Shown: positions 2,409-52,558 of the stretch, piece after piece
How positions within the stretch are numbered: position 1 is the first letter of the stretch
Layout: every line of letters begins with the position of its first letter
Assembly: GCA_944387535.1 (NCBI GenBank)
Contig: CALXFI010000001.1
Location: 2,682-66,681, forward strand
Reading direction: 5' to 3'
Source of the DNA: an uncultured Clostridia bacterium
Lineage (GTDB): Bacteria; Bacillota; Clostridia; TANB77; CAG-508
DNA length: 64,000 nt
The notes under the pieces: generated by a model
The model's input: only the letters and a program-made list of their open reading frames with translations
What the model was told of the DNA's origin: nothing
Database searches by the model: none
Program-made: the position numbers and the translations under genes

Positions 2409-5018
2409 TTGGCAAACGCTAAAGAAGAAGTTAATGTAAGTAAGATGTATGGCGAAGAATGTACTTTGCCAAAAGATGAATTTATTAAAAAATACAGAGT
2501 TAATGAAGGTGGACTTTCTTCAAAAAGAGCAAGTGAATTAATTAAAAATTTAGGATTAAATGAAATAAAACAAGCAAAACCAAAAAAATGGTATCACTAC
2601 TTTTTTGAAAGTCTATTTACACCATTTAATTTAATTTTATTAGGAATTACTTTACTTTTGTGTTATACAGATGTTATCTTACCAGAAACACCTAGTTACG
2701 CCAATATTATTGTTATTGGTATCTTAGTTGCTGCAAGTACTTTGCTAGACTTTTTTGAAGAGTATCGTTCTAATAAGGCCGCAAATGAATTAAAAGAATT
2801 GGTAGCCACAACTTGTCATGTAATAAGAGATGGTAAAGATGTGCAAATTCCAATAAAGGAAGTAACTCTTGGTGATATAGTTATTCTTTCTGCTGGTAGT
2901 ATGATTCCAGCTGATTTAAGAGTTATTGAAGCAACAGACCTTTATGTTGGGCAATCTTCTCTAACTGGAGAATCAGATGCAGTTAAAAAGACTGTTGAAA
3001 CAGAAATAAATAAAGATGAATTGGATAGCATTGCAGATATAGATACTATTTGCTTTATGGGAACAAATGTAATTTCTGGAAGTGCAAAAGGTGTAGTTAT
3101 TAAAACAGCGGATTCCACCTATTTTGGAAAAATTGCCCACACATTAACTACAGGTAAACCAAAAACAGCTTTCCAAAAAGGAATTGAGAGTATTAGTAAA
3201 TTATTAATTAGATTTATGCTAATTATTATACCAATTGTCTTTATACTTAACTTTTCAAAACATAGTATTGTAACAGCATTTACATTTGCAGTAGCAATTT
3301 CTATTGCTATCACACCTCTACTTCTTCCTGTTATTTTATCTTCATGTTTATCAAAAGGTGCTGTAAAAATGTCTAAGAAAAAGACTATTGTAAAAAAACT
3401 AGATGCTATACAAAACTTTGGTGCTATGAATATTCTATGTACAGATAAAACAGGAACATTAACAGAAGATAAAATCGTTCTAGAAAAGTATTTAGACATA
3501 AAAGGTGATGAAGACCTTGGTGTTCTAAAATATGCATATTTAAATGCTAGTCTTCAAACAGGATTAAGAAGTAATATTGATGAAGCTGTAATTAAACGTG
3601 GCGCTGAATACAATATGCCTGAATTAACTAAAAAATATATAAAATTAGATGAAATACCTTTTGATTTTGCTCGTAGACGTTTATCTATTGCTGTAAAAAA
3701 TGAAGAAGGTAAAGATGAATTAATAACAAAAGGTGCCGTAGAAGAAATTCTAAATATATCTACTTCTGTAGAATATAAAGGAGAAGTTTCTCCGTTAACT
3801 AGAGAAATTAAAGAAAATATACAAAGAATAAGTAAAAACTTAAATAAAGAAGGTTTAAGAGTTATCGCAGTATGTAAAAAATACAGTAATGAACCAGGTT
3901 ATGATTTTGAAGTAAAAGATGAAAAAAATATGATATTAATTGGATTCATTGGTTTCTTAGACCCACCTAAAGAAAGTGCTAAACAAGCCGTTGAAAGAAT
4001 GAATAAAGCTGGAATTCGTGTAATTGTTTTAACAGGTGATAATGCAGAAGTAACAAAATGTATATGTGACAAGGTAAATATTAAATCTAAACACATAATC
4101 TTGGGAAGTGAATTAGATAAGTTATCAGATGTAGCTGTCCTTAGATTAGTTAGAAAAAATAATATTTTTGCAAAATTATCTCCTATCCAGAAAGCTAGAA
4201 TTGTAAGACTTTTAAAAGAAGATGGAAATGTTGTAGGCTATATGGGAGATGGAATTAATGATAGTCCATCACTTACAAACTCTGATGTTGGTATCTCAGT
4301 TGATACTGCTGTAGATATTGCCAAGGAATCTGCAGATATTATTCTTTTAGAGAAAGACTTAAATGTATTATTAGATGGTGTAACTGAAGGAAGAAAGACA
4401 TTTGCTAATTTAATGAAATATATTAAGATGGCAACAAGCTTTAACTTTGGTGAAGTATTATCTGTTATCGTCGCAAGTATTGCTTTACCATTTTTACCAG
4501 AAACACCTATTCAATTATTAGTAGAAGGTTTACTATATGACTTTGGACAAATGACACTTCCATTTGACGATGTAGACCCAGAAATTGTACGAAAACCTAA
4601 AAAATTAGATATTAAGAGTTTAAAACACTTTATGCTATTTATGGGACCAGTTAGCTCTATATTTGACTTAATTGTATTTGCATCTTTATGGTTTATCTTT
4701 GGCGTCAGAGAAGCAGCCCTTTTCCAAACAATTTGGTTCTCATATAGTATCGTTTCAAACTTAGTTGGAATGCATATTATTAGAACTGCAAAAATACCAT
4801 TTATACAAAGTAATGCAAATAAAATGGTATATTTCTCTTCTATCTTATTAATTTTAGTAGGACTTATCGTACCATTTACACCTTTAGGAAGTTTCATTGG
4901 ATTAGTTCCAATGGCAGCAGAAGATATTGTGTTAATCTTTGTTGTAACTTTCCTATATTGTATTTTAGCTATGTTTGCTAAAAAGATTTATATTAAAAAA
5001 TATGGAGAATGGATTTAA
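2409..5018 (+). CDS. mgtA: Magnesium-translocating P-type ATPase
   Basis: P-type ATPase motifs DKTGTLT, TGDN and GDGINDSPSL are present. The protein is 869 aa with about 10 TM segments. The start codon is TTG, preceded by an AGGAG ribosome-binding site. Confidence 0.9.
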   Translation: MANAKEEVNVSKMYGEECTLPKDEFIKKYRVNEGGLSSKRASELIKNLGLNEIKQAKPKKWYHYFFESLFTPFNLILLGITLLLCYTDVILPETPSYANIIVIGILVAASTLLDFFEEYRSNKAANELKELVATTCHVIRDGKDVQIPIKEVTLGDIVILSAGSMIPADLRVIEATDLYVGQSSLTGESDAVKKTVETEINKDELDSIADIDTICFMGTNVISGSAKGVVIKTADSTYFGKIAHTLTTGKPKTAFQKGIESISKLLIRFMLIIIPIVFILNFSKHSIVTAFTFAVAISIAITPLLLPVILSSCLSKGAVKMSKKKTIVKKLDAIQNFGAMNILCTDKTGTLTEDKIVLEKYLDIKGDEDLGVLKYAYLNASLQTGLRSNIDEAVIKRGAEYNMPELTKKYIKLDEIPFDFARRRLSIAVKNEEGKDELITKGAVEEILNISTSVEYKGEVSPLTREIKENIQRISKNLNKEGLRVIAVCKKYSNEPGYDFEVKDEKNMILIGFIGFLDPPKESAKQAVERMNKAGIRVIVLTGDNAEVTKCICDKVNIKSKHIILGSELDKLSDVAVLRLVRKNNIFAKLSPIQKARIVRLLKEDGNVVGYMGDGINDSPSLTNSDVGISVDTAVDIAKESADIILLEKDLNVLLDGVTEGRKTFANLMKYIKMATSFNFGEVLSVIVASIALPFLPETPIQLLVEGLLYDFGQMTLPFDDVDPEIVRKPKKLDIKSLKHFMLFMGPVSSIFDLIVFASLWFIFGVREAALFQTIWFSYSIVSNLVGMHIIRTAKIPFIQSNANKMVYFSSILLILVGLIVPFTPLGSFIGLVPMAAEDIVLIFVVTFLYCILAMFAKKIYIKKYGEWI

Positions 5019-8659: not shown

Positions 8660-10114
8660 TTATCCTTCTACCCAAACCGATGTTGATTTTCCTTTTACTT
8701 TAAAGTTTCCATATCCTTGCTCATCTATTAATATCTCATCAGGACAGTTTGCTAAACTGTCTATAAACTTTTCTCCTACAAATTTTTCCCCTATATACAT
8801 TCTTTTTTCTCCATCGCCAGCATTTGAAATCACAACTGCTAGTCCTGATTGCAAATGCTCTTCATCTCCCTCTCTTGTCCATCCTATGAAGTTTTTGTTA
8901 TCAAAATAGTCATGTTCTTCTCCATATGCTTTTTCTTTTCTTAATTCTATTAAAGTTTTCAAATCTTTCATAGGTTCTATATTATCATGTGGTATTCCAT
9001 AAAAATCGCCATAAAATACACATGGATATCCTTCACTTTTTAGCAAGATTATACTATATGCTGCAGGCTTAAACCAAGCTTCTACAAAACTTTGTAAACT
9101 TTGTCCTGGCTGTGTATCATGATTATCTACAAATGTTACTGCTTTACTTGAGTTTTCTTTTAGTAATGTATGCTCTAAAATTCCACTTAAATCATAATTA
9201 GGATTAGTTGATGCATTATAAAAATTATAATGTAGTGGCACATCAAACAAAGATATTTCTCCTTCTGTTTCTGTTATATATCTATGTAATTTTGATACAT
9301 CTCCACTCCAATATTCTCCTACTGTGAATAATTCTTGTTTTGATTCTTCTCTTAATTTTTTTATCCAATCTCTATAAAAGTTAGCATTTATATGTTTTAC
9401 TGCATCTAATCTAAATCCATCTACTCCTGTAAAGTCTAAATACCATTTTCCCCATTTATTACATTCTTCTACTACTTCTGGGTTTCCAAAGTCTAAATCT
9501 GCTCCCATTAAATAATCATAGTTTCCAAATTCTTCATCTACTGCCACACTCCAATCCTTATCTTTAAACTTAAAGATTGCATGTTCTTTTGATTTTTCAT
9601 CATAGTCTATTCCATCAAAATCTGTCCAGTTCCACTCAAAGTCTGAGTATTTATGTTTTCTTCCTGGAAATGTAAATTTAGTAGCTACTCTTACTGTTTC
9701 TTGCTTTGCTTCTTCTATATTATGATTTCCCCATTCTACTTTATTTGCTGGTATTGTTTGCAACATATCTGCTCCCATTTTATGATTTAATACAATATCT
9801 GCATATGCTTCTATTCCTGCTTGATTTAATACTTGTATACAATTTAAATATTCATCTTTAGAACCATATTTTGTTTTTACAGTTCCTTTTTGGTCAAATT
9901 CTCCTAAATCATATACATCATAAACACCATAACCAACTTCATCTTTTCCACCTATTCCTTTATATGCAGGTGGAAGCCACAAAGCTGTTATTCCCATTTC
10001 AGCTAATTTAGAAGCATTTTCTGCTATATCATTCCACAAGTTTTGATTACAATTCATATACCATTCAAAGTATTGCATTATTATTCCATTTATCTTTTTC
10101 ATTTTATTCTCCAT
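8660..10114 (-). CDS. Cytoplasmic alpha-amylase (glycoside hydrolase family 13)
   Basis: GH13 region II motif GFRLDAVKH. No signal peptide. 484 aa. Confidence 0.85.
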   Translation of the reverse strand: MENKMKKINGIIMQYFEWYMNCNQNLWNDIAENASKLAEMGITALWLPPAYKGIGGKDEVGYGVYDVYDLGEFDQKGTVKTKYGSKDEYLNCIQVLNQAGIEAYADIVLNHKMGADMLQTIPANKVEWGNHNIEEAKQETVRVATKFTFPGRKHKYSDFEWNWTDFDGIDYDEKSKEHAIFKFKDKDWSVAVDEEFGNYDYLMGADLDFGNPEVVEECNKWGKWYLDFTGVDGFRLDAVKHINANFYRDWIKKLREESKQELFTVGEYWSGDVSKLHRYITETEGEISLFDVPLHYNFYNASTNPNYDLSGILEHTLLKENSSKAVTFVDNHDTQPGQSLQSFVEAWFKPAAYSIILLKSEGYPCVFYGDFYGIPHDNIEPMKDLKTLIELRKEKAYGEEHDYFDNKNFIGWTREGDEEHLQSGLAVVISNAGDGEKRMYIGEKFVGEKFIDSLANCPDEILIDEQGYGNFKVKGKSTSVWVEG

Positions 10115-10209
10115 CTTACTTAATTTTTTCGATTATATCACATTTAGTTATAATTTTCTATTTTATGAAGAACTTTTTTATTTTTTAAAATTTTATATTA
10201 ATATATAAA

Positions 10210-10243
10210 GAATAGAAACTCCCAAAATCGAGAGTTCCTATTC
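10210..10243. terminator. Terminator hairpin downstream of the radical-SAM gene (gaatagaaactc..gagttcctattc)
   Basis: An imperfect 12-bp inverted repeat is followed by a T-rich stretch on the minus strand. Confidence 0.4.
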
Positions 10244-10255
10244 TTTATAATTGAT

Positions 10256-11281
10256 TTATACGTTGGCATCAATATAATCTTTCGGATCAATATAAAACCA
10301 ACGTGTAAAACAGCCACCTCCACATATATGCCAGAGATCACACCTGATACATCTGCTACTAGGAAATCGCTTTACAGTATTTTTAAATTTTTTCACTATT
10401 TCACTATCCATTAGTTCTTCAATTGCATTTTCATTTTGTAAATTCAATGGTGCATCCTCAAATGGATAACCTAAAAAGTGATTACATGGTATAACTTTTC
10501 CATTAACATCAAACACAATCCCCGTACCTTTTTGTACGTAGCAACATGTGGAAACTCTTCCTTTTTTGAGCATTTCTTGCAAAACATCTTTTTCAATAAA
10601 ACACAAGGGAAATGAAAGTTCAATGGTATAATTAAAGTTATTTTTTTCTAATGTAGAAAAAATATAACTTGTGAAAGCTCCCATCTCTCTTATATCCATT
10701 GTCTTACTTGTTCCATCAATCTTCAAAGAAGGCTTTTCAAATTGAATAACTAAATTATCCAATTTTGATTTTAACAACATTACAACAAATTTATCAAACC
10801 TATCAGAATTATTCGATGTAACCACATAAGATATAGATGGCTCAATTCCTAAACTTTTTAAATTATGATACCCAGTAATAGCATCTTCTAAACCTACTTG
10901 ATGAGTATTTAAAAGATACTCTTGTTCTGAAAATCCTTTAATAGAAATATTTATACCATCTACTTTGGCCTCAAAAATTTGTTGTGCAAAAGCCATATCT
11001 TTGAATCTTTTACCATTGGTAGCAATTCTTATCTTCAACCCTTGTTCTTTAATATACTTAATTAGCTTCAAAATGTTTGGATAAATAGTAGGTTCTCCAC
11101 CAATTAATGTAATTGTATTGATTCCTTTTGTTTTCAAATATTTAACTATTTGTCTAGCCAAATCAAAATTCATATTTTGATTTTTTCCTAGAATTTTCCG
11201 TGCATAGCACCAATCACACATGCAATTACATGTATAATTTGTAGTTAACCAAGCAGCTGAAATATTTTGCATCTTGCTCAC
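10256..11281 (-). CDS. Radical SAM enzyme with a C-terminal SPASM domain; putative peptide-modifying maturase
   Basis: N-terminal CxxxCxxC cluster (CNCMCDWCY). C-terminal SPASM motif CIRCDLWHICGGGC plus additional upstream Cys residues. 341 aa. It lies directly downstream of a small Cys-containing peptide gene. Confidence 0.85.
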   Translation of the reverse strand: MSKMQNISAAWLTTNYTCNCMCDWCYARKILGKNQNMNFDLARQIVKYLKTKGINTITLIGGEPTIYPNILKLIKYIKEQGLKIRIATNGKRFKDMAFAQQIFEAKVDGINISIKGFSEQEYLLNTHQVGLEDAITGYHNLKSLGIEPSISYVVTSNNSDRFDKFVVMLLKSKLDNLVIQFEKPSLKIDGTSKTMDIREMGAFTSYIFSTLEKNNFNYTIELSFPLCFIEKDVLQEMLKKGRVSTCCYVQKGTGIVFDVNGKVIPCNHFLGYPFEDAPLNLQNENAIEELMDSEIVKKFKNTVKRFPSSRCIRCDLWHICGGGCFTRWFYIDPKDYIDANV

Positions 11282-11309
11282 TTTCCTTTGTCATTAGATT
11301 TTAAAAATT

Positions 11310-11339
11310 GGAGAGCCAGCTATCTCTAACTGACTCTCC
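11310..11339 (-). terminator. Strong hairpin GGAGAGUCAG..CUGGCUCUCC followed by a U-run, between the peptide gene and the radical-SAM gene. Probable partial terminator or attenuator.
   Basis: A 10-bp stem (one G.U pair) with a 9-10 nt loop is followed by AAUUUUUAAAAU on the minus strand. A second 6-bp hairpin (GGAGCU..AGCUCC) overlaps the stop codon at 11341-11360. Confidence 0.5.
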
Positions 11340-11350
11340 AGGAGCTTCAG

Positions 11351-11473
11351 TTACAGCTCCTTAGGGCACATAGGATCGCAATCGTAGTTCACGACCTTAC
11401 CCTCGACTCCCTCGACTGCATTATCAGATACAGTCTCAGTAGTCTTGGTCAACTCAAGCAGTTCCTTCAACAT
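11351..11473 (-). CDS. Putative 40-aa RiPP precursor peptide MLKELLELTKTTETVSDNAVEGVEGKVVNYDCDPMCPKEL
   Basis: The ATG is preceded by a strong GAGGAGGG ribosome-binding site at 7-nt spacing. An internal promoter lies directly upstream. The peptide is 40 aa with two Cys near the C-terminus. The gene sits immediately upstream of the radical-SAM/SPASM gene. The longer 67-aa ORF in the track (start 11554) lacks a ribosome-binding site. Confidence 0.6.
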   Translation of the reverse strand: MLKELLELTKTTETVSDNAVEGVEGKVVNYDCDPMCPKEL

Positions 11474-11518
11474 GCGAATCCCTCCTCTCTGTAAATAACA
11501 GATTGTTATAGCCTTACT

Positions 11519-11538
11519 GTAATTGCTAACGCAATTAC
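11519..11538. promoter_or_regulatory. Perfect 8-bp-arm palindrome GTAATTGCtaacGCAATTAC in the 5' UTR of the peptide gene; candidate operator or RNA hairpin
   Basis: Exact inverted repeat lying between the predicted promoter and the ribosome-binding site. Confidence 0.35.
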
Positions 11539-11544
11539 GATTAT

Positions 11545-11573
11545 ATACTACCACTTATTTTATGATAAGTCAA
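11545..11573 (-). promoter_or_regulatory. Putative sigma-A promoter for the peptide gene (-35 TTGACT, 17-bp spacer, -10 TAGTAT with a TATATAAT run)
   Basis: The motifs read on the minus strand and abut the GNAT stop codon. Confidence 0.4.
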
Positions 11574-12077
11574 CTAATTATGTAATTTTTGTTCAAATCT
11601 TATGTTTTTCACTTTCATATTTAAACTTTCATAAAATTTAATAGCTTCCCTATTAAATCTCCAAACTAATAATTCTATGCTATCTATGTCCTGTTTTTTA
11701 ACTAATTTAGTCATTTCATTATATAACTTCTTTCCAATTCCTTGTCGTTGCTCACCTTTTTTCACACTAATTTCTTTAATATTTAATATTCTTCTTTTTT
11801 TCATAATTTTACTATCTTTTATATTTTTTATTTCTGCAAAACAAATTCCTACAATTTTACCTTCTTTTTCTGCTACTAAGTATAGATTATTAATATTAGC
11901 TAGTTCATCTTTAAATGTCTCTATATCTAATGGTTCCGTATCTTTATATATATCTCCTCTTTCTTTTACATGTAAATTATGAACAGCTATCACCAATTCA
12001 TGAACTTGTTTAAAATCATTGCTTTTTGCTTTTCTTATAATAATTTCATCATTATTCATATTTCGTATTATCTCCAT
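11574..12077 (-). CDS. GNAT family N-acetyltransferase
   Basis: GNAT acetyl-CoA-binding motif QRQGIGKKL. 167 aa. A TTGACT-17-TATTAT promoter lies upstream at about 12090-12130. Confidence 0.8.
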   Translation of the reverse strand: MEIIRNMNNDEIIIRKAKSNDFKQVHELVIAVHNLHVKERGDIYKDTEPLDIETFKDELANINNLYLVAEKEGKIVGICFAEIKNIKDSKIMKKRRILNIKEISVKKGEQRQGIGKKLYNEMTKLVKKQDIDSIELLVWRFNREAIKFYESLNMKVKNIRFEQKLHN

Positions 12078-12241
12078 TTCTAAAAAATTTTTATTTAATT
12101 AATAATATATTTTTTTATTTTAATAGTCAAGTTCATTAACATTTAAAATATGCTTAATAATTTATAAATTTTATTATAATACCATTTATTGACATATTTT
12201 TACTATTTTTATATAATTACCACTTGAAAGGAATGATTTTT

Positions 12242-12664
12242 ATGGATTACGTATTTGAAAGAAGAATTAATTATTATGAAACTGATAGAATGGGAATTGT
12301 TCATCATTCTAATTATATTCGTTTTATGGAAGAAGCAAGATGCTATCTTCTTGATAAACTTGGTATGCCTTATTCTGCCTTTGAAGATAACAATGTTATG
12401 ATACCAGTTCTTGGTGTTAATTGCACTTTTAAACATCATGTTACTTTTAATGATGTTATATTAATAAAACTATATGTAAAAGAATTTAATGGTGTAAGAC
12501 TTACTATGGGTTATACTGCTACTGAAAAAAATACAGGAGAAGTTGTCTTTACAGGTGAAACTAAACATTGTTTTACAGATAAAAATTTAAGACCTATTCG
12601 TCTTCAAAAATCTATCCCTGATTTTTACAAAAAATTTAATGATTTAAAAGAAAAAGGTCTTTAA
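12242..12664 (+). CDS. Acyl-CoA thioesterase, YbgC/4HBT hot-dog fold family
   Basis: N-terminal YETDRMGIVHHSNY motif typical of 4HBT thioesterases. The start was chosen at the ATG preceded by AAAGGA. Confidence 0.7.
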   Translation: MDYVFERRINYYETDRMGIVHHSNYIRFMEEARCYLLDKLGMPYSAFEDNNVMIPVLGVNCTFKHHVTFNDVILIKLYVKEFNGVRLTMGYTATEKNTGEVVFTGETKHCFTDKNLRPIRLQKSIPDFYKKFNDLKEKGL

Positions 12665-12739
12665 TTTTCCTTTGATTTATGTTACAATGTAGTAGATTTT
12701 AGAAGAAAATGTCAAAAGATAAAACAAGGAGGATTTAAA

Positions 12740-13027
12740 ATGGAATTTAATAGATGTAGTAGATGTGGAAGTTTTTATGTTTCAGAGGGTAATGTTTGCC
12801 CTAAATGTAGTAAAAAAGATGGAGCTGAATTTATGCAATTTACATCTTATTTGGACGAAAACGGTTTTAATAATTCTTTAGATACTATTTCTAACCAAAC
12901 AGGTATATCTGTTAGAAACTTAAATCGTTTCATTGGATATCCTGAATTTAAAAATTATAAAAAAGATTTCAAAAATGGTATTATCCAAAACCAAGAAACT
13001 GGTTTTAACGGAATAACACTTAACTAA
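12740..13027 (+). CDS. Zinc-ribbon protein (CxxC..CxxC at the N-terminus), YvyF/TIGR03826-like
   Basis: Motif RCSRCGSFY..VCPKC. A GGAGG ribosome-binding site is present. A TGnTACAAT extended -10 element lies upstream at about 12686-12695. Confidence 0.5.
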   Translation: MEFNRCSRCGSFYVSEGNVCPKCSKKDGAEFMQFTSYLDENGFNNSLDTISNQTGISVRNLNRFIGYPEFKNYKKDFKNGIIQNQETGFNGITLN

Positions 13028-13043
13028 GAAAGGATTTTGATTT

Positions 13044-14255
13044 ATGGAAAATGTTATTGATTTGCTTAACGAAAGAGGTTATATCGAACAAATTACTCAC
13101 CCAGAAGAGTTAAAAGAACTTTTAGGAAAAGAAAAAATTTCTTTTTATATTGGTATAGACCCTACTGCTGATAGTTTACATGTTGGTCATTTTGTTTCAC
13201 TAATGGTTGCATCTCATATGCAAAAATGTGGACATAGACCAATTATATTAGTTGGTGGCGGTACTGCAACAATTGGTGACCCATCTGGAAAAACTGATAT
13301 GAGAAAAATGCTTTCTCGCGAAGAAATTAACCATAACGTTGCTTGTATTAAAAAGCAAGTTGAAAAATTTGTTAGTTTTGAAGGTGAAAACGCAGCAATA
13401 ATAGTAAATAATGCCGACTGGCTTTTAGATTTAAAATTTGTTGACTTTGTACGTGAAATTGGAAGCCTATTCTCTGTTAATAAAATGCTTGCAGCAGAAT
13501 GTTATAAACAAAGACTAGAAACTGGTCTTACCTTCTTTGAAATGAGCTATATGCTTATGCAATCTTATGATTTCTTACATTTATATAATGAGTATGGTTG
13601 TAAGTTAGAAATGGGTGGAAATGACCAATGGTCTAATATTATAGGTGGAGTTGATTTAATTAGAAAAATTGGTAAAGACGATTCTTTTGGTTTAACATTT
13701 AAACTTCTTACAACTAAAGAAGGTAAGAAAATGGGTAAAACTGAAAAAGGTGCCCTATGGCTTGCCCCTAACAAAACTTCTCCTTATGAATTTTACCAAT
13801 ATTGGAGAAATGTTGAAGATGATAGTGTAGAAAACGTTTTAAAAATGCTTACATTCTTACCTATTGAAAAAATAAAAGAACTTGCAAGCCTTAAAGATGA
13901 AAAAATAAATGATGCTAAGAAAATTCTAGCATATGAAATAACAAAATTGGTTCATGGAGAAGAAGAAGCTAAAAAAGCTGAAGAAGCTTCAAATGCATTA
14001 TTTAGTGGACAAGGTAACTTAGATAACATGCCTACTACTAAATTAGAAGATAGAAATATTTCAATCTTAGATGCAATTATTAAATGTAATATGGCTCCTT
14101 CTAAAGGACAAGCAAGAACGCTTATCAACCAAGGTGGTATATCTCTAAATGATGAAAAAGTTACAGATACAAACTACAAACTTTCAGACAATGACTTCAA
14201 AGATGGATATGCTATTCTTAAAAAAGGTAAAAAAGTATTTAATAAGCTAATATAA
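13044..14255 (+). CDS. tyrS: Tyrosine--tRNA ligase
   Basis: HIGH motif (LHVGHF), KMSKS motif (KMGKT) and a C-terminal S4-like domain. Confidence 0.95.
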
Positions 14256-14350: not shown

Positions 14351-14995
14351 CTAATTGCTTGGTGGTGGTGGTGCTACTGTATTAAGAAAACTAATTTCAG
14401 GTACAAGGCTTCCCGGATCTTTATTATTTTTAGCCCATATTTCTACATTTAACTTATTTCCTTCAGCTATTACTTTAAAAGTTACTTCATATTCTGAATC
14501 ATCATAAGTTGTATAAGGCTCTCCTAAACCAATCTGCTTTATATAATAAGTATAATCACCTGGTTTAGTGAATGTAAATTCACCAAAATCAATGTTACCA
14601 TCTTCATCACTAGTAGCTTTACTAATTAAACTCTTATTTTCATCTCTTAATTCGAATTGTAAAACTCCTGCATATTTACTTATATCGCCACCATTTACAT
14701 TGACAGTAACTGGTAACGTAGTTTTTAGTATTTCATAAATTTCTGATTCTGATTCACCTCCAGTTGATGTTTCTCCCTTTGTCCAATTACTCATAATCTG
14801 ATTGTATTCATTAAGTATTGCCGCTTCATTTGCTGCTGCATTCTCTGTTTCACCTTTAGCTCTTTGTGCTTGAGTAAGTATTCCATTATCTCCTGTTAGC
14901 ATCGCAATTGAAACACCAGCTAGTATTAATAAAACTATGATTGTGATAACTAGTGCAATAAGTGTAATTCCTTTATCTTTCTTTTGTTCTTCCAT
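14351..14995 (-). CDS. Prepilin-like protein with a pilin isopeptide-linkage (Spy0128-like) domain
   Basis: The N-terminus KGITLIALVITIIVLLILAG resembles a class III prepilin signal but carries Ala instead of Glu at +5. The C-terminal part (FTFTKPGDYTYYIKQ..YEVTFKV) resembles isopeptide-bond pilin domains. Confidence 0.5.
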   Translation of the reverse strand: MEEQKKDKGITLIALVITIIVLLILAGVSIAMLTGDNGILTQAQRAKGETENAAANEAAILNEYNQIMSNWTKGETSTGGESESEIYEILKTTLPVTVNVNGGDISKYAGVLQFELRDENKSLISKATSDEDGNIDFGEFTFTKPGDYTYYIKQIGLGEPYTTYDDSEYEVTFKVIAEGNKLNVEIWAKNNKDPGSLVPEISFLNTVAPPPPSN

Positions 14996-17159: not shown

Positions 17160-20054
17160 TTATTCATTTGCATTATTAACTGTTACATTATTTTGCTCAT
17201 CTATTGTATTTTCACTTACAACATTTGTATCAGTAGAATTTGTTGTATTTCCATCTACTTGATTTTCATCTGCTTTTTGTTCCTCTCTTGCTTGTTCTAA
17301 TTGATTAATTAATTCTTGAAGTTTTGAAATGTCACTTCCCATTAACTCCCAATCATTATTTTCATTTGATTCAGTTAAGTTTTGGTTTGCTCTTATAATA
17401 GCATCAATAATTCCTTCTATATCTCCTGTATCTTCAACTTCAATATCAGTCGCATACCTTGAAAGTAAATTTTGTAATGCTTCTGTTAAAGTATCTCCTA
17501 TTGCAACCTTATTTCCAGATGCTACTATTACCTTCTTTAAAAGTGGAACATCTGATTCATTAAGCATTGTTTGATAGATAGGTTCTACATATAATAATGT
17601 ATTATTTATCGGAACTACTATCATTTGTTTTGTAAGTTTCGTTCCTGTTACATTTAAAGAATCTAACTGACTACTAATAGTTGTATCTTCTTCTATTTGT
17701 TTATCAAGTTGCATTGGACCTACTATATTACTATCAGCTGAGAATTTGTATAATCTTAACACATTTTCACCATTTTCATTGCTTCCTACTAAGTATGAAA
17801 TTATATTTTGCCTTTGATCTGGTGTATATATCTGTACTAATCCTAATTGCTCACCATTATTAGTTTTGACCATTGTATAATATGGTTCCATATATGTTCC
17901 TGTTGTATTTGTATTTCTTGTTGTACTAGATTTCGCAATATCCCACAAATCGTCTCCTCTATATATTACATCTGGTCTAGTATTATGGTATACTTTTAAA
18001 ACTTCTGCTTGAACATTATATAAGTATTCTGGATATACAAAGTGACTAGATATATCCTCTGGTATTTCTTCATCTAAATCTTTAAATAATCCATCATATA
18101 TATTTCTATAAGCCATAGCAATTGGATCTGTTCTATCAGTTATATAAAAGTCCATTGTTCCATCATAGCTATCAATTATTACTTTTACTGAATTTCTTAT
18201 ATAATTTATATCTTGTGTGTATCCATCATGTTCAATTGTAGTATATTGTGAAAATGGATAACTAGATGATACTGTATAAGCATCCAACACCCATACAATT
18301 CTTCCATCATTTGTAACAACTGTATATGGATTTTCATCATAAATTAAATATGGCATTGCTTTTTTAGCTCTTGTTATGATATCTCTATTTATTAATATCT
18401 TACTATCACTTGTCATTTCACTAGAGAAAGCTAAATTTAAATCCCCTTTTGAAATTCCAAGTACTAATCTATCTAAAAATCCTAAATTTAATCCAGCTTC
18501 GCCTGAATAAGTTGATACTTGATCTGTTCCGTTTTCATCTGTATAGTCATACTCTTGTTTATTTTTTGTATTTGTTGCTATTGTCTCATCTGTTTCTAGT
18601 CCGAAATATATTCTTGGCTCTGAAATATTAATTACTTCATCTGAACCTGATACATCACTTTGTACATATTTAATATTTCCACTATCTGTACTCTCTGTTG
18701 CAGATGTTATAATTTCTCCCATTCCATGAGTATATTCATATGTTTTATTACTATAAGTTCTTCCTGAATTAGTAATTTCTCTAGGCGCCAAATATACTAA
18801 TTTATCTTCACCATTTATATTATATTTTGCAAGTGTTGCATTTGGATAGACATAGTAGCCTGCATTTGATTGGTTATTTTGAATAGTCTCCAACACTGCA
18901 TCTTTACTAATTATTGGTATATTATTTATTACATTTTTTGCCTCATCTACTTCTTCTTGAGTTATTGTTCCTGAACTTTCAAGATTAGTTTCTTCAATTT
19001 CTATGTTATATGCTCTTTTTGTATTTTCTATATTTGCTGAAATATAGTCTCTTTCTTTATCTAATTCATTTGAATTTACATATATTAAGTCAAATCCTAG
19101 CATTGCAACAAATAATACAACTAGATATCCAGGTATTACTGCTAAGTTTTTTAATACTTTATTTGTACTTCCAGCTTTAAATGCTTTTAATGCTCTATAT
19201 GCAAATATTACAATTATAAATGCAAATATTACATATCCCCAAACTTGAATTGTTGCTTCTGTCATTCCAGCTCCATTTATCTCTATGTTGTCACCAACTG
19301 TAAGTATTTTTCCAAACATAACATTTTGAGTACCTAAAACAGTTAAAATCGCTATACCTATTACTATTAACATTACATTTCTAAGTAATTTCTTCATAAA
19401 TAAGCTTTCTTTTAACATTTTGCCATCTATTCCGTCGAAATATCGATTAAATACTATAATATAATATAGTGCCATATATATTGATAAACATACAAATAAT
19501 ATTACAAAATATAAGACGGCTGTTTCTATCAATGGTTTTAAAAACATATAATATGAAATATCTAATCCAAATATAGGATCTTGTATTCCAAATGATGCTT
19601 TACTTGTTGCTAGCATTATTTTTTGCATAAGAGCTGATGATGTAAAAAAGCTTACAATTGCTGATATTACTAATGCTAAAGATTTATTTGGAAGCTTTGG
19701 CATTTTTTTATTTTCATTATCAAAAAATACTTTTAATCCTTTTTTTATACCTCTATTTGTTAAATAGATAACTATATATAGAATAAGGAAAATAACAGCC
19801 ATAGTTGTATAACGATAAGTTATATTTGTTTTAAAAATATTAGTATATTCTTGTCCTAATTCTAAATATTCTAAATAACTTCCTCTTAATTGAACATAAC
19901 TAATTACTGCAAATATTAATAAAAATGCAATAACAAGCAACATTCTTGTTCTACTATTTTTCTTTCTTTTGACTTCCTTTTCCTTTGTTTCTACTGTTTT
20001 TGCTTCATTTACTTTTGTTTGGATATTTTCTTGTTTTTGGGTATCTTTATCCAC
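17160..20054 (-). CDS. Large polytopic membrane protein, probably UPF0182 family
   Basis: 964 aa with about 7 N-terminal TM helices, a large extracytoplasmic domain and an acidic C-terminal tail. Size and topology match the UPF0182 proteins of Clostridia. Confidence 0.5.
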   Translation of the reverse strand: MDKDTQKQENIQTKVNEAKTVETKEKEVKRKKNSRTRMLLVIAFLLIFAVISYVQLRGSYLEYLELGQEYTNIFKTNITYRYTTMAVIFLILYIVIYLTNRGIKKGLKVFFDNENKKMPKLPNKSLALVISAIVSFFTSSALMQKIMLATSKASFGIQDPIFGLDISYYMFLKPLIETAVLYFVILFVCLSIYMALYYIIVFNRYFDGIDGKMLKESLFMKKLLRNVMLIVIGIAILTVLGTQNVMFGKILTVGDNIEINGAGMTEATIQVWGYVIFAFIIVIFAYRALKAFKAGSTNKVLKNLAVIPGYLVVLFVAMLGFDLIYVNSNELDKERDYISANIENTKRAYNIEIEETNLESSGTITQEEVDEAKNVINNIPIISKDAVLETIQNNQSNAGYYVYPNATLAKYNINGEDKLVYLAPREITNSGRTYSNKTYEYTHGMGEIITSATESTDSGNIKYVQSDVSGSDEVINISEPRIYFGLETDETIATNTKNKQEYDYTDENGTDQVSTYSGEAGLNLGFLDRLVLGISKGDLNLAFSSEMTSDSKILINRDIITRAKKAMPYLIYDENPYTVVTNDGRIVWVLDAYTVSSSYPFSQYTTIEHDGYTQDINYIRNSVKVIIDSYDGTMDFYITDRTDPIAMAYRNIYDGLFKDLDEEIPEDISSHFVYPEYLYNVQAEVLKVYHNTRPDVIYRGDDLWDIAKSSTTRNTNTTGTYMEPYYTMVKTNNGEQLGLVQIYTPDQRQNIISYLVGSNENGENVLRLYKFSADSNIVGPMQLDKQIEEDTTISSQLDSLNVTGTKLTKQMIVVPINNTLLYVEPIYQTMLNESDVPLLKKVIVASGNKVAIGDTLTEALQNLLSRYATDIEVEDTGDIEGIIDAIIRANQNLTESNENNDWELMGSDISKLQELINQLEQAREEQKADENQVDGNTTNSTDTNVVSENTIDEQNNVTVNNANE

Positions 20055-20244
20055 TTTTTTACCTGCTACTCAAAATATGAACAAATATACTCATATCGAG
20101 ATCTTGAAAGTTTTCACAAACATTTCTTACTGCTTCATTGTGTATGCTTTTGTGGTTAAAACTAACTCACTACTCACAAGTTCTTGTACACTCCACAGTC
20201 GTAAATTCCCGACTAGCCATCGGTACATACTTACAATCGCTTGT

Positions 20245-31671: not shown

Positions 31672-32029
31672 TGGTGGAGATGAGGAGAGTCGAACTCCTG
31701 TCCACAACACCTTCCACATAGATATCTACAAGTTTAGTTTGTTTATTTTATTCATTTTAATAACACCAACAAACAGGTTTTATTAAAATATAGCTTTTTA
31801 AAATACCCACTACTCCAAAAGCAAAAGTAGCTTCGTTTCCCACTAATATAACACTTTATCTAAAAAGGTGGGACTTTTTAGTAAAGCGGAGCTGCTCTTA
31901 GGCAGCTGCTAATGCTAATTCTTCGTTATCAGCGTTTATATTTATTTTCGCTTTTTTTAAGTGGCCAAAGCGACCATCCACTACTTGCAATCTATACTTC
32001 TAGTATTATGTCGAAACCATTGCATCCCC
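31672..32029 (-). ncRNA. ssrA: tmRNA (transfer-messenger RNA)
   Basis: 5' GGGGAUG and 3' ..GGAGUUCGACUCUCC(U)CAUCUCCACCA form a tRNA-like acceptor and T arm. The internal tag reading frame ends ..ADNEELALAAA then stop. A terminator hairpin (gacac..gtgtc) lies at 31643-31669. Confidence 0.85.
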
Positions 32030-52261: not shown

Positions 52262-52558
52262 AATGATTATTTTTAACAATTTATATAAAAAATAGCGCCT
52301 CCTTTACAAGAGACGCTAAAAATACGTGGTACCACTCTAATTATTTATATATTTTTAATTTCTATATAAATCACTCATTCTCTATAACGCCGAGTCCGCG
52401 AACTATGATACTAAATATTTAAATTTTTCCCATAGCCACTCATAAGCTCTTTTCATCTTATAATCCACATGTTAGCTCTCACTCTACCTAACTCGCTGTT
52501 GCTTCAATATAAAACTACTCTCTTAATCATCGATTTTATTATTAATTTTTAAACTATA
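52262..52558 (-). promoter_or_regulatory. T-box riboswitch leader upstream of argG-argH
   Basis: Conserved T-box sequence AAUUAGAGUGGUACCACG (plus-strand 52324-52341 reverse-complemented). An intrinsic terminator AGCGUCUC..GAGGCGCU plus U-run (52292-52315) lies immediately downstream. A sigma-A promoter TTGACA-17-TATACT is at 52565-52593. The stem I region carries AGAGA and a GUAGAGUGAGAG distal-loop motif. Confidence 0.7.

Follow-up and report, generated by a model that had tools for sequence, protein, structure and literature searches.

Radical S-adenosylmethionine (radical-SAM) enzymes with a SPASM domain are a well-known kind of maturase for peptides that are ribosomally made and then post-translationally modified (RiPPs), and new families are regularly found by genome mining. 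In the SCIFF (six cysteines in forty-five residues) or ranthipeptide systems such as CteA/CteB and Tte1186, a short Cys precursor and a SPASM radical-SAM enzyme form a two-gene core, which is widespread in anaerobic Firmicutes, lies in a chromosomal housekeeping context and has no linked protease or exporter. QhpD forms Cys-Asp and Cys-Glu thioethers in QhpC. PapB joins Cys to the beta-carbon of Asp at CX3D motifs and tolerates spacings from CX0D to CX6D (PMC9413430), and NxxcB joins Cys to the beta-carbon of Asn at NxxC and also accepts Asp or Ala in place of Asn (PMC9389541). Here, we analyzed a 64,000-nt stretch of DNA (the window) from an uncultured Clostridia bacterium (assembly GCA_944387535.1, contig CALXFI010000001.1), in which the minus strand carries, at 10256-12130, three co-directional genes for a GCN5-related N-acetyltransferase (GNAT), a small open reading frame (ORF) and a radical-SAM/SPASM enzyme. 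As an initial annotation made from the sequence alone had proposed, this locus is probably a radical-SAM peptide-maturation cassette of the RiPP type. It shares the two-gene core of the SCIFF systems, and its surroundings are likewise chromosomal housekeeping genes (dnaE, tyrS, tmRNA).

A profile of the enzyme was used to scan 185,579 species genomes, which yielded 80 loci from uncultured gut and rumen Clostridia, RF39-type "Bacilli/Mollicutes", Candidate Phyla Radiation (CPR)/Patescibacteria and DPANN archaea. In what follows, L-numbers denote enzyme loci in other genomes and unlabelled coordinates refer to the window. By tblastn and an ORF catalogue, a related peptide ORF was found 5' of the enzyme gene in the clade to which the window belongs and just 3' of it in distant loci. 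The distant loci have no DNA similarity to the window, yet the small ORF located 3' of their enzyme gene encodes a related peptide, for example MLLELLNKFNGTEIIAPIATGINKKSNDNLDCNCIDCGDDADCSTPW. When the peptide profile was applied to the 80 loci, it matched a same-strand ORF directly adjoining the enzyme gene in 50 of them (E <= 0.01), and among the 5002 small ORFs of these loci there were zero non-adjacent matches. Manual translation of L006 added one adjacent peptide inside a longer ORF call, so that the small ORF, whose conservation next to homologous enzyme genes the initial annotation had named as a check, is found there in at least 51 of the 80 loci. The clear pairs come in both gene orders and from Clostridia, RF39-type Bacilli and CPR bacteria, and weaker Cys/Asp-rich ORFs are placed alike in many other loci, among them most DPANN and further CPR ones. 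Clustering of all neighbouring proteins in 81 loci left the peptide as the only partner conserved across the family.

Alignment of 37 peptides revealed a common leader, L..LL..YKGT.I.AP.A.G, followed by a core that starts at about N-(L/Y)-D-C-(D/N)-C and has the consensus N-L/Y-D-C-D/N-C-V-D-G-D-C. The leaders are conserved and the cores hypervariable, with 1 to 13 Cys each and a composition of 24% Cys and 23% Asp. A single column of the alignment is invariant, the Cys that corresponds to C32 in the window peptide. Eight family peptides gave no NCBIfam match even at E <= 10 and belonged to no Pfam family; in the source annotations the peptides appear only as "unknown" or "hypothetical", and one of them is present on 786 contigs from human-gut-type RF39 bacteria. 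Conserved leader, variable core and co-conservation with a maturase are the marks of a RiPP precursor. Judged by these alignments, the small ORF is the leader-plus-core precursor of a large, previously unannotated peptide family that directly adjoins this radical-SAM/SPASM family, and the peptide is very probably the substrate of the enzyme. L014 (2497-5357) contains two tandem enzyme-peptide pairs whose cores differ (SEYCQ repeats in one, CNCNC-rich in the other), which suggests duplication and core diversification.

The features of the locus, all on the minus strand, are listed below in the order of transcription.

12102-12130, minus: promoter-like site TTGACT-17-TATTAT, 5' of the GNAT gene, 10/12 consensus matches.
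11574-12077, minus: GNAT acetyltransferase gene, 167 aa, acetyl-CoA motif QRQGIGKKL (PF00583, E 7e-13).
11545-11573, minus: promoter of the peptide gene, -35 TTGACT at 11573-11568, 17-nt spacer, extended -10 TGgTAGTAT at 11553-11545.
11519-11538, minus: 5'-untranslated region (UTR) hairpin GTAATTGC-GTTA-GCAATTAC, near the predicted transcript start, supported by covariation.
11480-11487, minus: Shine-Dalgarno (SD) sequence GAGGAGGG, 7 nt ahead of the peptide ATG.
11373-11482, minus: long-range mRNA helix, 11482-11465 with 11387-11373, with two inner helices between the arms, supported by covariation.
11351-11473, minus: predicted precursor peptide gene, 40 aa plus stop (codon pattern, family alignment).
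11473-11372, minus: peptide codons 1-34, the conserved part, ending NYDCDP.
11380-11378, minus: codon of the invariant Cys32.
11371-11354, minus: peptide codons 35-40, MCPKEL, strain-specific read-through.
11341-11360, minus: hairpin GGAGCT-GTAACTGA-AGCTCC, 3' of the ancestral stop, 6 pairs, 97.6% of cells paired.
11303-11340, minus: intrinsic terminator, 14-bp stem then ATTTTT, between the peptide and enzyme genes.
10256-11272, minus: radical-SAM/SPASM enzyme gene, 338 aa (motifs, Pfam, fold).
11230-11207, minus: CxxxCxxC of the enzyme.
10351-10310, minus: CX2CX5CX3C of the enzyme.
About 10204-10249, minus: 21-bp hairpin, -26 kcal/mol, 3' of the enzyme gene, probably a terminator.

All the sequence features given in the initial annotation (the three minus-strand genes, the SD sequence and the enzyme motifs) are present, as are the internal promoter that it assigned to the peptide gene and the probable terminator that it placed after the radical-SAM gene.

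The 40-aa peptide of the window is MLKELLELTKTTETVSDNAVEGVEGKVVNYDCDPMCPKEL. The six closest loci (L001-L005 and L073) each have a homologous ORF at the same place 5' of their enzyme gene. Across these seven loci the 34 shared codons contain zero indels and both flanks contain indels; the variable columns fall at codon positions 1/2/3 in the numbers 19/7/33, and peptide dN values lie between 0.08 and 0.31 against dS values from 0.15 to saturation. This pattern indicates that the small ORF is a real protein-coding gene and that purifying selection acts on its 34-aa form, in which NYDCD is invariant across the seven species-level genomes. In 6/6 relatives a stop codon follows NYDCDP (NYDCDL in L001), giving 34 residues. 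In the window, a 3-nt deletion removes this ancestral stop and adds the six codons MCPKEL, which run into a 3'-UTR hairpin conserved in the relatives. The Logan contig L081, an independent assembly, differs from the window by 1 base in 1763 and has the identical 40-codon ORF, which is therefore a real allele. Since the second Cys of the peptide arises from the lost stop codon, it is lineage-specific and no conserved feature. The short core with two Cys put forward in the initial annotation must thus be revised: from the alignment, the conserved core in the window clade comprises six residues and a single Cys, in place of twelve residues and two Cys. It follows a leader (residues 1 to about 28) of the form LLEL.KTTE.VS...EG.KG.V, its N29-Y-D-C32 is invariant in the clade, and it is strongly truncated in comparison with the 15-50 residues of the remaining family. 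A second family peptide was searched for in the window and was not found.

The enzyme gene starts at the ATG at 11272 rather than at the GTG at 11281, and the resulting length of 338 residues is shared by nearly all close homologues that are full-length. The two Cys motifs named in the initial annotation, C15-x3-C19-x2-C22 and C308-x2-C311-x5-C317-x3-C321, are invariant in 28 homologues (41-74% identity), in which C224 and C244-x13-G-x4-C263 are also invariant and C243 is at least 90% conserved. PF04055 (Radical_SAM) scored 72.4 bits against a cutoff of 29.5, and PF13186 (SPASM) was marginal, just below its cutoff (21.2 against 21.5 bits); the SPASM domain is supported by the invariant Cys motif together with the predicted fold. 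As there is no Cys after C321, the usual last SPASM ligand is either missing or supplied by C243. The window enzyme is 59-74% identical to the members of its clade and keeps all family-invariant residues. The AlphaFold (AF2) model has a pLDDT of 86.9. Its first structural match was SuiB (E 1.7e-16, TM 0.73), with anSME at TM 0.70-0.72, then SkfB, ChlB and PqqE; all five are peptide-modifying SPASM enzymes. In a sequence search of the PDB, Tes, SuiB and SkfB were best (E 1e-16 to 1e-18), PqqE reached only E 1e-5, and no close relative with a solved structure was found.

The initial annotation had also considered that the enzyme might fall into a SPASM family acting on something other than a peptide. 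This was not the case: every NCBIfam match was generic and far below cutoff, the best being ScmF (77 bits against 400) and others including NirJ2 (76/500), anSME TIGR03942 (65.3/349), PapB NF047865 (62.4/340) and MftC (60.9/265), and NCBI names the homologues "radical SAM protein" only. Among 1.84 billion representatives of 50%-identity clusters, the enzyme profile matched 505 at E <= 1e-30 against 16,357 at 1e-10, which marks a distinct family of medium size. Several specific identities were rejected. Membership of the PapB family is contradicted by 62.4 bits against a cutoff of 340, and that of anSME by 65.3 against 349 bits, by a neighbourhood containing no sulfatase gene and by a peptide without C/S-x-P/A-x-R. 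For mycofactocin or pyrroloquinoline quinone (PQQ), MftC is below cutoff, the peptide ends in DCDP(MCPKEL) and not in GVY or E-x3-Y, and no mft or pqq genes lie nearby. For SCIFF, the peptides have no NCBIfam match, and no SCIFF maturase occurs among the 25 best matches of the enzyme, all below 80 bits. The exclusion of SCIFF, MftA and anSME substrates in the initial annotation is borne out by these results. A viperin (defence) identity was set aside since the PADLOC pVip matches cover only residues 13-170, the radical-SAM core, and a SPASM domain is present. In addition, four proteins of 1028-1318 aa (P0204, P0211, P0217 and P0260) contain three or four enzyme-profile stretches each and, by this profile, resemble several copies of this radical-SAM family fused together.

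In the proposed mechanism, the enzyme would bind the leader, residues 1 to about 28, and SAM-derived 5'-deoxyadenosyl radical chemistry would modify the invariant Cys32 in N-Y-D-C-D. By analogy, we tentatively favour a Cys thioether as the modification; its likely form would be a bond between the Cys sulfur and a carbon of a neighbouring Asp or Asn in the ranthipeptide or sactipeptide style, with a mass shift of -2 Da. It is favoured because the one residue invariant throughout the family is a Cys with Asp/Asn beside it, because the consensus D-C-x-C-x-D-x-D-C holds nested C-x3-D, the motif cross-linked by PapB, because NxxC, the motif at which NxxcB acts, is invariant in the window clade, and because of the precedent of QhpD. 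The GNAT would then acetylate a peptide amine (+42 Da). Leader removal and export, if any, would proceed via unlinked functions, as with SCIFF peptides.

Unlike SCIFF peptides, the window peptide has no match to the SCIFF model, another leader motif and one Cys (in the clade) rather than six; moreover, the window locus has a GNAT partner, its enzyme lacks the N-terminal RiPP recognition element (RRE), and CteB (5wgg) matches the enzyme sequence over the radical-SAM core only (E 5e-10). With PapA/PapB (freyrasin), the family shares a Cys/Asp-rich core and the nested C-x3-D of its consensus, and the PapB model aligns over its full length (enzyme residues 7-326 with model positions 2-318 of 330), whereas the score is low (62 against 340 bits), the leader unrelated and CX3D absent from the window clade. 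The CX0D spacing tolerated by PapB (PMC9413430) is the only Cys-to-Asp spacing available after Cys32 in this clade. NxxcA/NxxcB, a streptococcal radical-SAM RiPP (RaS-RiPP) system, is likened by its motif, N-Y-D-C being an NxxC. Across the family, position -3 before the invariant Cys is N, D, S or A and hence not conserved; these residues resemble the acceptors of NxxcB (PMC9389541). The KxxxW and WgkB maturases, streptococcal enzymes of this network, carry an extra N-terminal domain, as the enzyme aligns only from about residue 116 of their models. The window enzyme differs from these maturases in having no such domain, and neither an Rgg/SHP regulator nor a transporter lies nearby. anSME has the same minimal RRE-less architecture, acts on a peptide Cys and matches the model over its full length; sequence identity to anSME and SuiB is however 18-21%, and the window locus has no sulfatase and no CxPxR. 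SuiB, the streptide maturase, forms a Lys-Trp C-C bond on a KxxxW peptide, and KxxxW is absent here.

The window GNAT scored above the cutoffs of PF00583, PF13508 and PF13673 and has the Q-R-Q-G-I-G motif; it reached no NCBIfam equivalog, the best being RimI (52.9 bits against 86.4). Orthologues with 44-62% identity lie directly 5' of the peptide gene in 6/6 relatives, so that synteny holds in 7/7 clade members. In an RF39-type sister clade (L020-L033 and L074, where the fusion genes lie at about 3467-5010; also P0113), the enzyme is 500-530 aa long and its N-terminal 175 residues are a GNAT. This fused domain matches PF13302 (Acetyltransf_3, 9e-12) and PF00583 (3e-9) and belongs to another subfamily than the window GNAT. 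The fused type also occurs as a separate gene, 5' in L035 and 3' in L019 and L037, and L034 has a further Acetyltransf_3 GNAT 3' of the enzyme. The linkage of the GNAT to the locus assumed in the initial annotation is thus upheld by synteny and by the fusions. This distribution makes a GNAT the third partner that recurs, as a separate gene in the window clade and as a fused domain in another. As the two GNAT types have no detectable pairwise similarity, the link rests on recurrence and not on orthology. We lean slightly towards the view that the window GNAT also works on this peptide, in an optional tailoring step. In radical-SAM cyclophane RiPP clusters, HaaN-type GNATs occur in the same combination with maturase and precursor and provide a precedent for N-acetylation; they differ in that the HaaN model (NF041716) gave 27.6 bits against 250, the window GNAT being nearer to RimI-like proteins and the sister clade having a fused Acetyltransf_3.

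The initial annotation had described the three genes as a self-contained unit. They are indeed co-directional, and the peptide-enzyme pair is co-conserved, but the intrinsic terminator that follows the peptide gene splits it from the enzyme gene, so that the unit is not a simple operon. This terminator is the only terminator-like site in 9800-12700. The promoter TTGACT-17-TATTAT, placed 5' of the GNAT gene in the same annotation, is present at 12130-12102, but 23 sites of such quality were seen against 20 +/- 4.6 expected from shuffles of this AT-rich region; since such sites occur at chance frequency, the promoter is weak evidence alone. The promoter of the peptide gene begins directly after the GNAT stop codon, and its -35 TTGACx and extended -10 TGnTAnnAT are conserved in seven loci. 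L001, L002 and L005 have a further promoter, TTGACATAA...TATGGTATTAT, past the terminator and ahead of the enzyme gene (columns ~345-375 of the seven-locus alignment). Lanthipeptide operons, nisA for one, commonly have a hairpin behind the precursor gene that gives excess precursor transcript. Here too, the terminator would make precursor mRNA far more abundant than enzyme mRNA.

In the region 11300-11570, GC content is 45-49% against about 27% in the flanks, and the fold has a z-score of -5.9 against shuffles. By RNAalifold, the 3' part of the SD sequence, the AUG and the next codons pair with the YDCDP codons (helix 2: 14 pairs, 96.9% of cells paired, 3 compensatory pairs in the seven loci). 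The 5'-UTR hairpin has 8 pairs, 100% of cells paired and 2 compensatory pairs (L003), and the terminator helix (helix 6) has 8 compensatory pairs. In the window, the hairpin at 11341-11360 overlaps the last codons and the new stop. Altogether, six helices with 57 pairs were 92% paired over the cells of the seven loci, and double-sided changes occurred at 19 pairs, against 6.3 +/- 1.9 in shuffled alignments (0/500 reached 19) and 3-7 in slid controls. With seven related sequences, this covariation is supportive of the fold, not conclusive. A conserved mRNA fold, alongside the coding constraint, explains both the GC-richness and the z-score, and the pairing of the SD sequence and AUG with the core places the same bases under both coding and structural selection. 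Such pairing would limit or regulate translation, or stabilise the mRNA. By the seven-locus alignment, the peptide gene has a conserved promoter and a terminator to itself, and the fold of its mRNA is conserved.

Some observations speak against this view of the locus as a peptide-maturation cassette and must be weighed. The enzyme starts 14 residues before CxxxCxxC and therefore has no N-terminal RRE domain. Clustering of the neighbours in 81 loci gave no protease or transporter conserved across the family; for the window unit itself, the initial annotation had rightly noted that neither a protease nor an exporter is encoded. In the same clustering, a 777-aa P-loop membrane protein (cluster c4) appeared in six loci with variable position and strand. 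Small HExxH proteins (c1, ~220 aa, 17 loci; c5, ~140 aa, 6 loci) lie just 3' of the peptide gene in CPR/DPANN loci only (for example L045 5223-5693, L036 1707-2084, L040 1609-2043 and L068 5028-5690); they gave no significant match in a Pfam search and could be leader peptidases or tailoring enzymes. The extra promoter of the enzyme gene is absent in the window, L003 and L004; having no promoter of its own, the window enzyme would need terminator read-through for its expression. As for the chemistry, it is proposed by analogy; the core of the window clade has none of the C-x3-D motifs of the family, what is deduced family-wide may not be valid for this clade, and the frequency of Asp at position -1 is inflated because the table was anchored on [DNE]C. 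Finally, BLASTP of the window GNAT against the fused GNAT domain gave nothing significant, and no GNAT lies near the enzyme in the Clostridia loci L006-L018. With such dissimilar GNAT types, and loci having none, acetylation is not universal, and the window GNAT could simply be a syntenic neighbour.

Four other explanations were considered. As 11300-11570 is GC-rich and strongly folded with a terminator behind it, the ORF was first tested as a structured non-coding RNA, that is, a small RNA or a cis-regulatory leader in which the ORF is incidental. Its own promoter and terminator and the covariation-supported structure agree with this, but an Rfam search was empty at E <= 1, the ORF is free of indels and its substitutions follow a coding pattern, and protein-level homologues lie by the enzyme gene in distant phyla with no DNA similarity. 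A pure RNA reading was rejected on these grounds and is given very little credence; structure and coding coexist, the fold being an added layer. Equally improbable is that the enzyme acts on another substrate, whether anSME-like on an unlinked protein, on a small molecule or in viperin-like defence. The close structural match of anSME, the PADLOC viperin models matching residues 13-170 and an RRE-less architecture like that of non-RiPP SPASM enzymes could be quoted for it. However, the matches to anSME, viperin, MoaA and NirJ reflect generic similarity of the radical-SAM core, far below cutoff, neither a sulfatase nor C-x-P-x-R is found nearby, and the adjacency of the peptide in at least 51/80 loci, in three lineages and both gene orders, is very hard to account for otherwise.

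The window copy might also be a decaying remnant without a functional product, as its clade has a core of 6 residues against 15-50 elsewhere, its stop codon was lost by the 3-nt deletion and it lacks the enzyme promoter of L001, L002 and L005. Purifying selection on the 34-aa form with invariant NYDCD in seven genomes, the retention of every family-invariant enzyme residue at 59-74% identity within the clade, an intact promoter, SD sequence, mRNA fold and terminator, and the occurrence of the same allele in an independent sample make decay improbable. A larger though still minor chance is given to an intracellular peptide-derived cofactor or metal-binding peptide, cross-linked or oxidised in the manner of mycofactocin, PQQ or QhpC and not secreted. 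It would account for a pair with which no exporter, immunity gene or protease is conserved, which occurs in reduced-genome RF39-type Bacilli and CPR bacteria with weaker matches in DPANN archaea, and which in the window is surrounded by the housekeeping genes dnaE, tyrS and tmRNA; the Cys and Asp content of the cores, with up to 13 Cys, resembles a metal-binding composition. Yet the cores vary enormously (1-13 Cys), as is typical of natural products, whereas cofactor precursors are strongly conserved; in contrast to mft or pqq clusters, the neighbourhood holds no conserved partner oxidoreductase or further tailoring gene, and the enzyme falls far short of the thresholds set for the mycofactocin and PqqE families. 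Similarly, we consider it unlikely that the family is an unrecognised class of radical-SAM Cys/Asp-rich peptides, spread over gut Firmicutes, CPR bacteria and perhaps DPANN archaea, that combines a chemistry other than the standard sacti- or ranthipeptide thioether, an intracellular role (such as a metal- or redox-active cofactor on which reduced-genome symbionts depend) and a GNAT, fused in one clade, as integral catalytic partner.

Other features of the window were recorded outside this locus. A RAGATH-18 RNA (73.9 bits) lies at 20127-20199 on the minus strand, 5' of a 964-aa ORF (17160-20054), and further RNA genes are the tmRNA (31672-32029), a T-box (52306-52539) and three tRNAs. The 214-aa protein encoded at 14351-14995 on the minus strand begins like a prepilin (KGITLIALVITIIVLLILAGV), with Ala replacing Glu5, a residue that type IV pilins usually carry. 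A 95-aa zinc-ribbon ORF (12740-13044, plus strand) lies directly 5' of tyrS (13044-14255); a T-box might be expected 5' of a Firmicute tyrS, and no T-box leader was detected there.

The initial annotation had called the locus undescribed. This holds as far as tested: the enzyme family, the peptide family and the GNAT partnership are new to curated models and to the full-text-searchable literature (subscription-only papers being outside this search), and no structure of the family has been solved. Radical-SAM/SPASM peptide-modifying enzymes are a main source of new peptide chemistry, and the present enzyme family comprises about 500 clusters at 50% identity in which neither enzyme nor substrate is annotated. 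It reaches CPR bacteria and probably DPANN archaea, lineages for which very little secondary metabolism is known. The window clade offers a minimal natural substrate, with a 28-residue leader and a six-residue core containing a single Cys, which makes the chemistry unusually tractable by mass spectrometry or nuclear magnetic resonance, and the GNAT fusion provides a testable second step. Furthermore, the mRNA of this RiPP precursor gives a clear example of coding and structural constraints that overlap. The locus is real, widespread and experimentally tractable, and it would be conceptually surprising only if its chemistry or role proved unusual.

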